Below, piece by piece: positions 37,163 through 55,821 of a stretch of 64,000 bases of DNA. The number at the start of each line of letters is the position of its first letter. The first letter of the stretch is position 1. Source of the DNA: an uncultured Planctomycetota bacterium (lineage in GTDB: Bacteria; Planctomycetota; Planctomycetia; Gemmatales; Gemmataceae). The position numbers and the translations under genes are program-made. The notes below the pieces were generated by a model, which was not told the DNA's origin, did not search any database, and saw only the letters and a program-made list of their open reading frames with translations. The stretch covers positions 800,001 through 864,000 of the forward strand of contig CAWKHF010000002.1 of the NCBI GenBank assembly GCA_963849325.1, written 5' to 3'.

Positions 37163-37236
37163 TACGCCCGGCAGGAATCGAACCTGCAACCTGCGGTTCC
37201 GAAGACCGCTGCTCTATCCAATTGAGCTACGGGCGC
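37163..37236 (-). tRNA. tRNA-Arg (anticodon UCG), CCA not encoded
   Basis: GCGCCCGTAGCTCAATTGGATAGAGCA GCGGT CTTCGGA ACCGC AGGTTGCAGGTTCGATTCCTGCCGGGCGTA folds as a cloverleaf. Confidence 0.95.
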
Positions 37237-44690: not shown

Positions 44691-45619
44691 ATGTCCTTCC
44701 GCTTGTTCATCTATTATTGTGCCTTGTGTGGCGGCGGAGGCGCCTTCGTGGGCTGGTGCTGGGCCGGCCCCTGAACATTCACAATCCGGTGCTGTCCCAG
44801 GGTGTCAAGGGCATGCTCCTGGGCCTTTCAGTGACCCTGGCGCTGGGAGTGGTCGATGCCCTGTGGGTCTTCTCCCCCCAGCGCGTCGTGGCCATTGGCT
44901 TGCGCGTCGCCACCGCCGTCGTTGTCGGCACCATGGGCGGGTTACTCGGAGGGCTGGTGAGCCAGGCCTTGTATGGTTGGACGGAGTGGGCCTTCTTTCT
45001 CGTCCTGGGTTGGACGATCACTGGCTTTCTCATCGGCGTGTCGCTGGGCGTTTTTGACTTGCTGGCCTGCCTCCTCCAAGGACAGGATCCCGGCGCCGCG
45101 CTGCGGAAGGTCTTGAAGGCCGTGCTGGGCGGCACGGCGGGCGGAGTGCTGGGCGGCATCCTCTCGCTCCTGCTGCACAGCGGCTGGACGCGGCTGCTGG
45201 GGTCCAGGCCCGAGATGCAGGAACACCTTTGGAGTCCCAGCGCCTGGGGTTTCGTCGCCCTGGGAGCGTGCATCGGCCTGTTGATCGGATTGGCCCAGGT
45301 CATCCTGAAGGAAGCCTGGCTCAAGGTCGAGTCCGGCTTTCGCAAGGGACGGGAAGTGATTCTGTCCAAGCCGGAGGTCACGATCGGTCGGGCCGAGAGC
45401 TGCGACATTGGCCTATTCGGCGATCCGCAGGTCGAGAAGCTGCACGCACGCATCCGCCTGGAGGGCAATCGACACGTGCTGGTCGATGAAGGCTCCGGCT
45501 CCGGCACCTATGTCAACGACGAACGCCTCCAGGGTTCGCGGATGCTGCGCTCCGGCGACGCCATCCGCGTGGGCAAGAACGTGCTCCGCTTCGGCGAACG
45601 CCAGAAACAGTCGAATTGA
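44691..45619 (+). CDS. multi-pass membrane protein with C-terminal FHA domain, frameshift near 44740
   Basis: MSFRLFIYYCALCGG start; Gly-rich TM helices; TIGR..CDI..HARI..GTYVN..LRSGDAIRVG. Confidence 0.85.
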
Positions 45620-48631: not shown

Positions 48632-49492
48632 TCACTTTTTCCCTTCCTTCCTCAGCAATTCGGCATGAACGTGGGCCACGTCGCCCATGTAAGAACCAAT
48701 GCGATACTTGCCCTCCGCCAATGTCATGTGTTCCAGTGCCTTCTTCTTGTCGCCGGTCACGTCGTAATACAGTCCCAGATAGAGATGAGCGTAGAACAGT
48801 TGCTGCTTGCGCAGCTCGGTAGGCACTTCGCCGGCTTTTGCGGCATCGAGCACGTCGGCCGGCTTCAACTTGCCGCGATAGAGGTCGTACACCTCCATCA
48901 TGGGCACGCGCCGATCTCTGCCAATCTTGAGCATGGCCTCCCGCGCCTGGTCGATGCCCAGCCGGCGGGCGTTGCAGAGGAAATGCCAGACGGCGTTCTC
49001 CACATCATTGGTATCTACTTTCTCGTAGCCCTCGAACTGCTTGCGGCCGTCGTCGAAGCGGCCGACGTAATACAGGGAGATGCCGCGCTTCCAGTGGCCG
49101 GGCGCCGCCTTGGGTCGCAGCTGGAGAAAGCGGTCGAAGTCGGCCAGAGATTCCTTGATGCGGCCGAGCTTGAACTGCTCGCTACCGCGGTGATCATAGG
49201 CTTCGGCGAGGCGAGGGTCTCGTTGCAGGCATCGGTCGAAGTCGGCGATCGCCTCGGTGTGCTGCCGCAAGACTTCGTGAACCATGCCCCTCAGGAGATA
49301 GCCGCGCGCGTCCTTCGCATCAGCTTCGATCGCCTTGTTCGCCCACTCCATCGCCTTCTTGGTTTCCTGTTTCATTAAGGCGGCCTCACCCCGCTGGAGA
49401 TAGTCGTCAACCGTGTCGGCGCGGACGGGCGACGACAGAGAGCCGACGACGAGGAGGCCGAGAGCGAAGACAGACAGGCGGCGCGGACGCAT
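48632..49492 (-). CDS. exported TPR protein (NlpI-like)
   Basis: Signal peptide, TPRs, WKRGISLYY, NDVENAVWHFLC, FYAHLYLGLYY. Confidence 0.85.
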   Translation of the reverse strand: MRPRRLSVFALGLLVVGSLSSPVRADTVDDYLQRGEAALMKQETKKAMEWANKAIEADAKDARGYLLRGMVHEVLRQHTEAIADFDRCLQRDPRLAEAYDHRGSEQFKLGRIKESLADFDRFLQLRPKAAPGHWKRGISLYYVGRFDDGRKQFEGYEKVDTNDVENAVWHFLCNARRLGIDQAREAMLKIGRDRRVPMMEVYDLYRGKLKPADVLDAAKAGEVPTELRKQQLFYAHLYLGLYYDVTGDKKKALEHMTLAEGKYRIGSYMGDVAHVHAELLRKEGKK

Positions 49493-49592
49493 GGTTTCTT
49501 CTCCACGTCAGAGGATGGAATCGCGGCGCTATCTTACGGAGCCGGTCATGCACTGGCCGGGGTCGATACAATACGCTTCACGGAGGGAAAAC

Positions 49593-50833
49593 ATGAAGAG
49601 ACGATGGTGGTTCCTGGCGGCGGCCCTCGGTTTGTGCGGCTGGAATCCGGGGCGCGCGACGAAGGCGGAAATGCCGGGCAAACCGGAGGCGCCGCGCTGG
49701 TTGAGCGGCTGGGAGGAGGGCCGGAAGGCAGCGCGGGACAGCGGCAAGCCGATTTTCGTCGTCTTCCGCTGCGAGCACTGACTGGACTGCCATCCGTTCG
49801 ACGGGCAGGTCGCTCGTCTGGATCGCGTCCTCGCCGACGCGGCGAAGGAGTTTGTGCTCGTCCGTATCAATCACATGCGCGGGGTCGATCTCGACCTCTT
49901 CGATTTCGATTACGACCTCACCTGGATGGGTTTCTTCCTCAACGCCGACGGGACGATCTACGGCCGCTACGGCGGGCGCGACGCCGAATCGGCTGACAGC
50001 CGAATGTCACTGGCGGGTCTACGAAACGCCATGACCGCGGCCCTGGAGCGGCATCATCGCGGAGGGATCGCTCAGTCGGAGCCGATGCCGCGTCCTTCTC
50101 GTGCCGTGGAGCAGTATCCAGCAGCGCGGCGGCTGCCCGAGCGCGCCTGCATCCACTGCCATCAAGTCTACGACCTCCGCCGCGAGAGCCGGCAAGCGGC
50201 CGGGAAATGGCGGCTCGATGAAGTATGGGTCTACCCTATGCCTGAGAACGTGGGGCTGACTCTCGATGTTGATCGTGGCGACTCCGTCGCTCGGGTTGCC
50301 GTGGATTCGCCGGCGTCGCGCCTCGGCATCCGGGCGGGGGACCGCCTGCGCACGGTCAACCGCCAACCCGTCGCTTCCTTTGCCGACGTCCAATACGCCC
50401 TGCATCGCGCCCCGGCTCGCGGGCGCTGCCGATCACCTGGGAGCACGAAGGACAAACTCAGGAGGGAGAATTGACGCTGGCGGATGGCTGGCGAAAAACG
50501 GACATTTCCTGGCGCTGGTCGCTGCGCGGCCTCGATCCACCGCCGTGGGTACACGGCGACGACCTGTCGGCGGAAGAGAAGCAAGCGCTCGGCCTGGGCG
50601 CCAACCGGCTCGCGTTCCGCCAGGGTCCGTTCGTCTCCGAGCCGGCGCGGCAGGCGGGCATCCGCCAAAACGACGTCATCCTCGGCATCGACGGCAAAAT
50701 GCTGGAGATGACGTCTCGGCAGTTCGCCGGCTACGTTCGCCTAAACTACCGCGTGGGAGATCGCGTCACCTACAACCTGTTGCGGCGAGGAGCGCGCCTA
50801 GACGTTTCCTTGCGCCTGTTGGGTCGGCCTTGA
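49593..50833 (+). CDS. thioredoxin-like/PDZ putative selenoprotein (Sec at TGA 49779-49781) with CxxCH; frameshift near 50430
   Basis: Signal peptide; W..GRKAARDSGKPIFVVFRCEH-TGA-LDCHPFD continues in frame into FDFDYDLTW..YGRYGGR, CIHCHQ and two PDZ-like domains. Confidence 0.85.
49792..49823 (+). promoter_or_regulatory. bacterial SECIS-like hairpin
   Basis: ATCCG-TTC-GACGGGC-AGGTC-GCTCGTC-TGGAT, beginning about 10 nt after the TGA; G-containing apical loop. Confidence 0.7.
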
Positions 50834-50854
50834 AGAGATTGGACGGCGCGATTG

Positions 50855-52484
50855 TCATTCGCCCTTGGCGCGTACCTGACGGTTCATCAGCTTCGTCAGC
50901 GCCTCCAGGGCGGCGTTTCGCTGCGGGTCCGTGAGAGGATCATCCAGCGGCAGACGTTCCGTCGAGGAGCCGGGCCGGAGCGTTTGCTGTTCCCACCAGG
51001 TATGCAAGGCGCGACTGAGGTCGGCGGAGACGCGGAACTCGCGTCCGGGATCGGACCGGACGCCCCAGTCGCCGCTCGGTTTGCTGTCGGGGAAACGGTG
51101 CAAGTTCTGGCCGCCGGGACGAACGATGGTCCCACTCGTCACCTTCAAGCCGATGGAGCCGGGACTGGTGATCGTTTGCACGTTGCCCTTGCCGCGCGTC
51201 CGCTGGCCGACCAGCACGGCCCGGCGATGGTCCTGCAACGCCGCCGCGATCAGTTCGGCGCCGCCGGACGATTCGGCGTTGATGAGCACCACGATCGGGA
51301 AATCCAGGAACTTGTCCTCGTTGGTGCTGCGGAAGATGTCCTCCGGCCGGCTGCGATACTTCACGGTGGCGATGGTCCCCTCGCCCAGAAACAGCTCAGC
51401 GGTCTTTATCGATCCGGTAAGGGCGCCTCCCGGACACCAGCGCAAGTCGAGGATCAGCCCGCGCAGACCGTCCTGCCGCAGAGTGCCGAGGACCTCGCGC
51501 AGCTCATCGGCAGTGCCATCGACGAGGTTGCCGAGCCGGATGTGAGCGACCTTCCCCCGAGCATCGAGCCAGTAGTTCCAGGCGTTGCCGTCGTCCCGCG
51601 CCACGCCGAAGATGCTCTCCGGCCGGAAGCGCTGCCAGTCCAGCGTCGCGCTCCGTTCATCCCGAACACCGGGCCGGCGGAACGATACGGTGATCGGCTC
51701 CGGCGAGGCCAGGATGCCGAGGGCGGGTTTCACCAGCGGCGTGCGGCCGTTGAGTACGTCCAGCATTTCCTTCATCTTCCGCTCTCGGCCGTCCGAATCG
51801 CGGACGCGCGTGATCTCGTCGCCCGGTCGCAGGCCGGCACGCTGCGCCGGACTGCCCGGCAGGACGTCCTTGACGACGATGCGCCCGGCGTCGCTGTCGG
51901 GGACTTCCAGCCCGAAGCCGTCGCGCTCCGCGACGAGGCTGGTGGTCCGGCGCTCCTCTCCTGAGGTTACGACACCGGAGTAAGGGTCGAGCGCGCGCAG
52001 CATGGCCTGGCAGCAGAGACGCAAGGGATCTTCCCCTTCCAGGTTCGCGTTCGCTCCAATCTCGGCGCGGATGGTGCGGACCAGCTCGATCAGCGGCCGG
52101 TCGTCGAAGAGGACGCCACGGCGCGGCGCCAGGGCTGGAACGAGCGGAGCGGCCGGGTTGGCGTTCGGCCCGACCGGAGACAGGGCCGCGGCATCCTTCT
52201 CGGCCTGATCGATGCGGCGGCGCAGATCGTGCGGTAGCGGCCGGCGGCGCGCGTTCATACAACGCCGCCAGGGCGGACTGGAGCAGATCGTTGCGCGACA
52301 CGGGGCGGACGTAGATCTCGGCGACGAGGTTGACGGCCGCGACCAGGTTGTGAGCGAACGCCTCGGCGCCTTCGGTCGTGTGGGCGGGCGAGGGAGGTGG
52401 GGCCGGCGGAGGCGAGGGGGCCGGGGCAGCGCCGGCGAAGACGGCGACCAGCAGCGGCAGCGAGAAGGTCAAGCAAACGCGCAT
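50855..52484 (-). CDS. S41 C-terminal processing peptidase with PDZ, frameshift near 52260
   Basis: LDPYS, PDZ GSPAQRAGL, LILDLRWCPGG, SSGGAELIAAALQD, GQRTRGKG. Confidence 0.9.
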
Positions 52485-53975: not shown

Positions 53976-55821
53976 TCAATGGTTCAGGATAAATTCATTG
54001 CTGTTGAGCAAGGCCCAGAACAAGTCCTCATAACGGCGCGATGGATCCTTGAAATCGTTGATGGTGAGACGATTGTCGCGGAGGCGGAACTGCTTCACGA
54101 TCGCGCTGGTCTCTCGGTTCGTCGGCAGCCGATTGAGGGCGGTCAGATACAGTTCCTCGATGGCGAATCGCTCCGTGCGGTTGCGGATGGCGATGGCGAC
54201 CGCGCCTTTTTCCTTGCGCGCGATGGCGTCGTTGATGTCCTTGCCGTTCATCATCAACAGCGCCTGCACGACGGTGCCGTTGAAGTTGACCTCGTTGCCC
54301 TCGTCGTCGCCGAAGTTGCTGATGAGGCGTGCCCAGCCACTGCTGCCTTGAGGTTCTTCTTGCCGTCCTTGGACTCGGCGGCCTCGGCCTTGGTGGCCAC
54401 CATCAGCGACTCGAACAGCTGTTCGGGACTCATCGACTTCATAATCATGCGGCTGAACAGCGCCTCCTGCTCCGGCTTGTCGTTGGTCTTGTTGGCCACG
54501 CAGCTGAGGTTGTAGGCGTTGCTGTTGCAGATCCAGCGGATCAGCTTCTTGAAGTCGTAGTTGTAGTGCTTGAAGCGAGCGGCCAGCTCGTCGAGCAGTT
54601 CGGGGTTGGACGGCTGGTTCTGGTCGTTGAAGTCGTCGATCGGATTGACGAAGCCGCGGCCGAAGAAGACGCCCCACATGCGGTTGACGATGGCCTTGGG
54701 GAACTGCGGATGGTCGATGACGAAGTCGGCCAGTTTCTCGCGTCGCTGCAAGCCGGTCATGTCGGCGGGCAGACGGCCGCCGTGTTTCTCCTCGCCGGCG
54801 GGCAGGAACTCGGCCTTGGCCGTGAGGATGACGCCGTTGCGCTTCTCGAAGAAGACGATGGCGTCCTTGACCGACGTTCGTCGTTGTCGCGGAGCGTCAG
54901 CTTGCCGTAGGCCATCATCCGGCCCACCTGCGGCGGCTGGCCGTCGCGGTTGACCTGGCGGAGGAAGGCGTTGACGCCCCAGAAGTGCTCCTGCTTGATG
55001 TTGCTGTAGAAGGGGTGATCGTGGCACTGGGCGCACTGCACCTGCGTGCCCAGGAAAAGCCGCGTGATGCGCGAGGTGATCGGCACCATCTGGAACTGGC
55101 CTTCCTCGGCGCGATGGGCCGGCGGCACGTTCTCGCCGACGTGGGCGAGGATGAAGTTGGTGGCCGCCCCGCCGTTCTCGGTGTCGTTGTTCTCGCCCGT
55201 GGCGGCGATCAGGCTCTTGACCATCTCGTTGTACGGCTTGTTCTGGCTGAACTGGTCTTCGAGCCAGATGGCCAGGTATTCGTGATACGGCCCGCGGCCG
55301 AACACGCCGGCGCGGCTGAGCAGCCAGTTCGACCACATGTTGGCCCAGTGGCGCGGGTACTCATCGCTGTCGAGCAGTCGGTTGATGAGCTTGGAGCGGC
55401 GCGTGTCCTTGGAGTCCTTAAGGTACGCGCGGATCTCCTCCGGCTTGGCGATGCGGCCGATGATGTCCAGCGAAGCGCGGCGGATGAACTCGAAGTCGTC
55501 GGTATAGCGCGACGGGGCGATCTTGTTCTCCTTCCACTTCTCCTCGCTCATTTTGTTGATGGTCGAGACCATCTCGGTCAGCTGAGACATCTCTTGCGGG
55601 TCGTTGCCCTTGACAACGAAGGTGAGCTTGGGCGCTTCGGGCCACTTCAGCGGCGCCTCCTCCTTGGCCTTCGTCTCCTTGCCTTTGTCGTCCTTGGGCG
55701 GAGCGGCCGACGTGACGTCGGACAGGCTCACCACGGCGAGCGCGCCACCCAGCACGAACAAGCCCACCAGAAGCGACCGGAGCCGACCCGGCCGCCAACC
55801 TCGCATGGATGCGCGGAGCAT
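53976..55821 (-). CDS. DUF1549/DUF1553 protein, frameshifts near 54880 and 54340
   Basis: FIRRASLDIIGRI, CAQCHDHPF, VNRMWGVFFGRGFV, PSNPELLDEL, WALLNSNEFILNH*. Confidence 0.9.

Follow-up and report, generated by a model that had tools for sequence, protein, structure and literature searches.

The locus considered here raises the question of whether an in-frame TGA codon ends one short gene and leaves a second gene to follow it, or whether it encodes selenocysteine (Sec) within a single gene. It lies in a 64,000-nucleotide (nt) stretch of DNA from an uncultured Planctomycetota bacterium (Gemmataceae), corresponding to positions 800,001-864,000 of contig CAWKHF010000002.1 in assembly GCA_963849325.1; this whole stretch is referred to below as the window, and all coordinates are given within it unless stated otherwise. 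The original prediction for this locus, made from the letters of the window, was of an exported thioredoxin-fold selenoprotein that gene callers would split in two. We hold with considerable confidence that the locus is one gene for an exported Trx7/PDZ selenoprotein of ~413 residues belonging to the family NF041199, with Sec at residue 63 (Sec63) directed by a Sec insertion sequence (SECIS), and that a frame break further downstream is artefactual. The protein is taken to be a genuine selenoprotein because the TGA column is conserved among homologues, Cys takes its place in paralogous forms, the hairpin that follows it covaries, and the genome contains the Sec machinery. In this central respect the prediction was borne out.

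Reading frame and family membership

The frame that opens at ATG 49593 meets an in-frame TGA (49779-49781) at codon 63, and the open reading frame (ORF) 49854..50474 lies in the same frame as this ATG, beginning exactly 24 codons past the TGA. Read-through of the TGA yields ...KPIFVVFRC-EH-U-LD-CHPFDGQVARLD... The sequence thus agrees with the junction that had been described and with the resulting C-E-H-U-L-D-C, and together with Pfam it also agrees on a hairpin ~10 nt past the TGA, on the motif CIHCH and on the presence of two PDZ regions. In the Pfam analysis Thioredoxin_7 covers the TGA (residues 35-98, E 4e-13), PDZ_6 matches residues 232-276, and a second PDZ domain was found in ORF 50471..50833, so that the architecture is PF13899, then PF17820/PF00595/PF13180 twice. 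The N-terminus looks like a signal peptide when judged by eye, and the protein is predicted on this basis to be exported.

The read-through protein up to the frame break scored 325.3 bits against the NCBIfam equivalog NF041199 ('Trx7/PDZ domain-containing (seleno)protein'), for which the cut-off is 300, with residues 35-278 matching model positions 2-254. The frame beyond the break adds 117.5 bits and matches model positions 253-389 of 390. On the strength of these profile matches the window gene is a member of this catalogued family, and nothing essential sets it apart. The family is already known, as the original prediction had allowed it might be, and the novelty of the locus is therefore low.

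The family is listed as a predicted prokaryotic selenoprotein with a CxxU motif (PMC13188914) and has a table entry, 'PDZ domain-containing protein, pfam13899, CxxU', in a second source (PMC9312934). Both of these cite Zhang & Gladyshev 2008 (PMC2398784), in which a selenoprotein family named 'putative secreted serine protease MucD' is given with the motif CxxU and with 2 Sec and 12 Cys sequences, and elsewhere a fusion of the MucD-like CxxC/U protein with a PDZ domain is mentioned (PMC9402790). From the tables, and with the sequences themselves uncompared, NF041199, the review-table families and the 2008 'MucD' family appear to be the same family. In the passages of these selenoproteome papers that concern the family no function is given for it, and no search was aimed at functional studies. 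We also considered an identity as a serine protease of the MucD/DegP kind and rejected it, as no protease domain was found in Pfam (E<=0.01). The HtrA/DegP ('MucD') serine proteases have a trypsin-like domain with a Ser-His-Asp triad, whereas the window protein has none. The label 'serine protease MucD' is unfit for the window protein because the protease domain is absent and because the NCBIfam Do/DegP/DegQ models match its PDZ part only, with 16-29 bits against cut-offs of 416-756.

Conservation of the Sec column and the redox motif

Family matches were found in 32 of 41 genomes (that of the window and 40 relatives) when all six frames were searched. Most of the 45 strong rows contain one TGA, and 40 of these rows were used. 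To them we added 22 further loci from named contigs of metagenome-assembled genomes (MAGs), which were found by searching with the window protein alone. Two loci, L060 (poor alignment) and L083 (no aligned column), were left out, and the remaining 60 loci represent 53 distinct sequences. The comparison of homologues that had been proposed together with the prediction gave a clear result: the Sec column holds TGA in 43 of the 53 distinct loci and a Cys codon (TGC/TGT) in the other 10.

The same alignment settles which residue partners Sec. All 43 distinct Sec forms have Cys or Sec at position -3 (with one locus, L059, re-registered), while the Cys at position +3 is present in 37 of the 43 and is replaced by E, H, G or P in the others; one Cys form also lacks the +3 Cys (RCVPCPPG). 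Because position -3 is always Cys or Sec and the +3 Cys is absent from some forms, the redox pair read from the alignment is C60-x-x-U63, or across the family C(-3)-x-x-U or U-x-x-U. The U-x-x-C site of the original prediction has accordingly to be given up in favour of CxxU. Across the distinct loci we counted 32 with CxxU, 11 with UxxU (including the re-registered L059) and 10 with CxxC.

The UxxU loci (L031, L039, L052, L059, L070, L073, L075, L076, L078, L079 and L081) carry, besides the TGA of the Sec column, another in-frame TGA located three codons before it. In these forms 34 nt separate the upstream UGA from the single downstream hairpin, a distance within the 16-37 nt SECIS window. 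The sequences suggest that U-x-x-U is a possible diselenide centre. The review entries for NF041199 give one Sec per protein, whereas here 11 of the 43 distinct Sec-form loci carry U-x-x-U.

Two of the UxxU loci, L039 and L052 (G038 and G026, respectively), end after the first PDZ domain, ~286 residues from the start of the thioredoxin domain, and have no second PDZ. Three loci (L073, L076 and L082), encoding proteins 43-55% identical to the window protein, come from MAGs labelled Actinomycetota, Armatimonadota and Alcaligenaceae, and these labels could reflect mis-binning or horizontal transfer. The remaining named matches are all from Planctomycetota, and among named relatives the closest are MAGs of Gemmataceae and of other Planctomycetota.

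The SECIS hairpin

Every Sec form has the hairpin GACGNNC-AGGUN-GNNCGUC at a constant distance past the UGA. In the window, the hairpin with its outer arm starts 10 nt past the TGA and is made up of ATCCG (49792-96), TTC, GACGGGC (49800-06), AGGTC (49807-11), GCTCGTC (49812-18) and TGGAT (49819-23); the core begins 18 nt downstream of the UGA, and 25 nt (49782-49806) lie between the UGA and the loop. Covariation was tested in 28 Sec forms aligned without gaps. Pairing in the 7-bp stem extends to 99% of cells, and three of its pairs show compensatory changes, with pair 35-45 occurring as GC in 10 sequences, AU in 9, GU in 8 and CG in 1, and pair 36-44 as GC in 11, GU in 9 and AU in 7. None of 500 shuffles matched the covariation score. 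The whole structure is paired in 75.6% of cells, compared with 31-55% for slid controls, and the loop positions A38, G39, G40 and T41 are invariant in all 28 sequences.

The outer arm (columns 23-27 with 50-54) is paired in only 42.9% of cells, and on this comparison ATCCG/TGGAT is not a conserved part of the element. The proposal of a SECIS directly 3' of the UGA therefore stands for the inner 7-bp stem with its AGGUN loop and falls for the outer arm that had been included in it.

The 19-nt core has a minimum free energy (MFE) of -9.8 kcal/mol (z -3.96), which was equalled by 1 of 200 shuffles. The 19 nt at the matching position have a mean MFE of -9.4 kcal/mol among the 43 Sec forms, compared with -2.1 kcal/mol among the 10 Cys forms, and the hairpin is absent from the equivalent place in all 10 Cys forms. 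Section 5 of PMC13188914 describes the consensus of bacterial SECIS (bSECIS) elements as an apical loop of 3-9 nt, an upper stem of 4-16 bp, 16-37 nt from the UGA to the apical loop and an MFE of -7.5 kcal/mol or lower. The window hairpin, with a 7-bp stem and a 5-nt loop, falls within all four of the constraints quoted in that section; most homologues have 8 bp and a 3-nt loop. Like the E. coli fdhF-type and consensus bSECIS, it is a stem-loop directly 3' of the UGA within coding sequence and has a G-rich loop (AGGUN here), and it differs from the fdhF type in matching no Rfam family. The string GCAGGUC presumably resembles that of the E. coli fdhF SECIS.

Sec machinery, the frame break and assembly quality

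The search for Sec genes that had been suggested for this genome found all that were sought. The genome encodes an intact selD (386.9 bits), selA (286.7 bits) and selB (313.7 bits), all above their cut-offs, as well as a tRNA-Sec with anticodon TCA (72 bits), also above its cut-off. The window itself contains a weak match to the tRNA-Sec model at 37164-37236 on the minus strand (G000:C2:837164-837236), which at 32.1 bits is below the gathering score and is most likely an ordinary tRNA gene.

A DNA alignment with three same-genus orthologues showed that the window lacks one base beside the GGG run at 50421-50423. The resulting -1 frame break at ~50423/50424 means that 49593-50833 is not one open frame even when the TGA is read through. 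The original prediction had set this gene apart from other defects of the window as an in-frame TGA at a catalytic position and not an indel; this holds for the TGA column, but the span as predicted also crosses the one-base break. Past the break the frame is open for 136 codons and is conserved, both in NF041199 and in an alignment to 36 homologues.

We regard the break as most likely an assembly indel and not biology, because the essential genes rpoB and rpoC are also frame-broken in the same assembly. When frames were derived from match coordinates, rpoB matched in frames 2, 0, 1 and 2 (four segments) and rpoC in frames 2, 0 and 1 (three segments). The matched pieces of rpoB and rpoC (G000:C1:334967-343005) and of selA and selB (G000:C12:1294158-1297495) are spread over several frames and contain no internal stops, a pattern suggesting that one-base indel errors are frequent in the assembly. 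On reading, the frame junctions of selA showed no clear homopolymer signature. The assembly consists of 14 contigs and is 84.69% 'complete', which would fit a contiguous but indel-rich assembly of the long-read type. Elsewhere in the window, a PSCyt2 (DUF1549)/PSD1 (DUF1553) gene at 54254-55821 on the minus strand is divided into two overlapping ORFs, 54757..55821 and 54254..55336, in differing frames, and this is probably another indel-type frame break. Broken-looking genes in the window should be read with assembly indels in mind.

Protein structure and proposed mechanism

The N-terminal part of the window protein (191 residues) was modelled with AlphaFold at a mean predicted local distance difference test score (pLDDT) of 82.7. 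Residues 1-130 of the model form a thioredoxin fold, for which the best match was 3f9u_B (Z 13.4, root-mean-square deviation 2.8, 118 residues), followed by Thermus thioredoxin, AGR3, DsbH and DsbD-gamma. The fold searches with this model returned thioredoxin folds only; the thioredoxin domain dominated them, and residues 131-191 were barely probed. The window domain shares its fold, and the placement of the active-site motif where helix 1 begins, with 3f9u ('exported cytochrome c biogenesis-related', DsbD-like), DsbD-gamma, DsbH and AGR2/AGR3/ERp18. The structures 3ph9, 2ju5 and 1vrs match it with Z 9.3-10.7, and the family profile matches AGR2 with E 3e-7. Domains of the DsbD-gamma, DsbH and AGR types are all extracytoplasmic or located in the lumen of the endoplasmic reticulum. 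Identity to the DsbD-gamma and AGR types is only 15-20%, and the window protein differs from them in having Sec for the second Cys. It is also fused to a CxHCH segment and two PDZ domains, and its polypeptide includes no membrane-embedded DsbD-beta partner.

A model of L023, the closest intact orthologue (79% identical), reached a pLDDT of 91.5 and a predicted template modelling score of 0.88. The C-terminal half of this orthologue is a PDZ tandem resembling DegP, DegQ and RseP, and Foldseek with the whole model returned PDZ-tandem proteins only. The match to DegP was found both with the family profile against the DegP PDZ domains (E 3.9e-21) and by Foldseek (E 4e-10), and the PDZ1-PDZ2 tandem of RseP was matched by Foldseek with E 3e-8. 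Unlike DegP/DegQ and RseP, the window protein has neither a trypsin-like nor a metalloprotease domain.

Between the thioredoxin domain and the first PDZ domain lies C-x-H-C-H, in which C157, H159, C160 and H161 show no variation across the 37 aligned sequences, Sec and Cys forms included. The window protein shares the CxxCH motif (CIHCH, 50148-50162) with the c-type cytochromes, together with export as judged by eye. No cytochrome family in Pfam or NCBIfam matched it. We consider that CxHCH may be a second centre, which could bind heme c covalently or could be a further redox or metal site.

In DegP and RseP, PDZ domains bind client proteins at their C-termini or at exposed peptides. By analogy, the window protein is probably an exported oxidoreductase that selects its substrates through its PDZ domains. 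In the mechanism that we propose, SelB-tRNA-Sec recruited by the hairpin at 49800-49818 would insert Sec63, and Sec63 would pair with C60 (C60-x-x-U63) at the active-site position of the DsbD-gamma/AGR-like thioredoxin fold. Once the protein is exported, its DegP/RseP-like PDZ tandem may capture envelope or secreted proteins by their C-termini or by exposed peptides, and the clients so bound would be presented to the selenol/thiol centre, which may reduce or isomerise disulfides or other oxidised sulfur or selenium species.

Alternative explanations

Standard ORF calling would treat the TGA as an ordinary stop and report two genes, one for a 62-residue exported peptide and one for a protein starting at GTG 49854. 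Such an arrangement is very improbable, since the Thioredoxin_7 and NF041199 matches cross the TGA, the 24 codons from the TGA to the GTG are conserved as protein (CN.FDGQVARLD...) in all homologues, and homologues exist with Cys at the TGA column. A reading of UGA as one of the standard amino acids, through a variant genetic code and not as Sec, is hardly credible. Nothing specific speaks for it, an open frame with TGA as a residue being an observation that does not discriminate; the window gene itself ends in TGA, as do 23 of 39 related genes, and a general reassignment of UGA is therefore ruled out. Elsewhere in these loci in-frame TGAs stand at the ends of genes, it is Cys that aligns with the recoded column, the hairpin follows only the TGA of that column, and the genome has a dedicated tRNA-Sec with selABD. 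The gene could also be a pseudogene, through a genuine one-base deletion, through dead Sec decoding (broken selA and selB) or through both, with UGA terminating translation. The break at ~50423/50424 relative to three orthologues would be expected of a pseudogene, and the same can be said of the spread of selA over three frames and of selB over two or more, of other defects noted in the window by the original prediction and of the split PSCyt2/PSD1 gene. We nevertheless judge a pseudogene unlikely: three frame changes in rpoB and two in rpoC correspond to about one indel per 1-2 kb, which is enough for one break in 1.24 kb; the 136 open codons past the break match NF041199 positions 253-389; and 84.69% 'complete' in 14 contigs would fit an assembly that is contiguous and indel-rich.

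The remaining alternatives accept the same gene and concern what its product does. The protein could be a heme-c/selenol redox or sensor protein, in which a heme at CxHCH exchanges electrons with CxxU or is ligated by it. This is possible, although we consider it doubtful. The invariance of C-x-H-C-H in Sec and Cys forms alike would suit a heme site, as would its place where a helix modelled with confidence begins, the predicted export (heme c is attached to proteins after their export) and the fact that the best structural match of the thioredoxin domain is a cytochrome-c-biogenesis-related DsbD-like domain. Against it stand the lack of any cytochrome family among the Pfam and NCBIfam matches, the replacement in 2 of 37 sequences of the nearly invariant His125, the candidate distal ligand, and the invariant His inside CxxCH, which is to our knowledge unusual for heme-c sites. 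With still more reserve, one may picture an undescribed two-centre exported redox enzyme, in which CxHCH, carrying covalent heme c or some other redox or metal centre, exchanges electrons with the selenol-thiol centre while the PDZ tandem chooses the substrates. If this were true, about a quarter of the members would work with a diselenide U-x-x-U whose two UGAs are both served by one SECIS.

Several observations weigh against our preferred reading of the locus as one functional gene for a SECIS-dependent exported selenoprotein. Shuffled sequences fold as well as the 81-nt region round the hairpin (z -0.55), whose fold energy was dropped as evidence; of the RNA folding that had been proposed as a check, the result for the 19-nt core is favourable and that for the 81-nt region is not. 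It is conservation, not fold energy, that raises the hairpin above chance. A search of positions 49400-51000 against Rfam (E<=10) returned no SECIS, but three chance-level matches, to mir-3150 on both strands and to Actinomyces-1. GAC-GGN-CAG-GU also encodes the conserved D-G/E-Q-V, and the conservation is thus partly protein-driven; the covarying stem positions do alter the encoded amino acids. The matches to selA lie in three frames and those to selB in at least two, and breaks of this kind, if real, would preclude Sec synthesis. The break in the frame of the selenoprotein gene itself could be real. Neighbouring genes are uninformative on function, with no conserved neighbour in 19 more distant loci. 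Sec insertion and expression are inferred throughout from sequence evidence, and substrate capture coupled to redox chemistry from domain homology.

Feature coordinates and gene neighbourhood

The features of the gene are collected in Table 1.

Table 1. Features of the Trx7/PDZ selenoprotein gene and their coordinates in the window.
Feature	Coordinates	Strand	Remarks
Shine-Dalgarno-like GGAGG	49582..49586	+	6 nt upstream of the ATG; seen in the sequence
Whole Trx7/PDZ selenoprotein gene	49593..50833	+	~413 codons, allowing for Sec and the one-base break; stop TGA 50831-50833
Signal-peptide-like N-terminal segment (MKRRWWFLAAALGLCGW...)	49593..49667	+	Basic n-region, then hydrophobic core; judged by eye
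Thioredoxin-fold domain	49680..50069	+	Pfam Thioredoxin_7 core 49695-49886; AlphaFold model
Redox motif C60-E-H-U63	49770..49781	+	TGC 49770-72; Sec codon TGA 49779-81
Cys66 (+3 Cys)	49788..49790	+	Frequent, not invariant
SECIS core, stem GACGGGC/GCUCGUC, loop AGGUC	49800..49818	+	7 bp; from folding and conservation
Extended hairpin with outer arm ATCCG/UGGAU	49792..49823	+	Outer arm specific to the window sequence; part of the MFE fold
C-I-H-C-H (C-x-H-C-H)	50148..50162	+	Between thioredoxin domain and PDZ domain 1; form of the CxxCH heme-c motif
PDZ domain 1	50244..50420	+	Pfam PDZ_6 E 2.4e-9, plus PDZ and PDZ_2
Frame break	50421..50424	+	One base absent beside the GGG run relative to three same-genus orthologues
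PDZ domain 2	50636..50815	+	In the +2 frame relative to the start; Pfam PDZ_2 E 5.2e-8

A divergent TPR gene with a signal peptide (48632-49492, minus strand) adjoins the selenoprotein gene. Among 39 related loci this neighbour recurs in 5, which all belong to one genus with the window (L023, L024, L026, L028 and L029), and it was not detected beside more distant homologues. The convergent neighbour on the other side (50855-52258, minus strand) encodes an S41 C-terminal processing peptidase with a PDZ domain of its own, and a search of the flanks of the 39 related loci did not reveal this S41/PDZ peptidase in any of them. Pfam analysis of 130 flanking ORFs from the 19 more distant loci revealed unrelated neighbours and no recurring partner. 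Further away, an ORF at 44717-45619 on the plus strand has a C-terminal FHA domain (Pfam E 2.2e-16) and is apparently unrelated.

Implications

For annotation, the locus should be recorded as one gene with a Sec codon, not as two ORFs and not as a pseudogene, and the nearby frame break as an assembly error. The family has been catalogued since 2008 and has carried no assigned function. To its description the present analysis adds a minimal SECIS, the CxxU register of the redox pair, an invariant CxHCH motif and a count of U-x-x-U members. Biochemical work on this exported selenoenzyme, which is widespread among Gemmataceae and other Planctomycetota, can take the CxHCH motif and the frequent UxxU variants as its handles.

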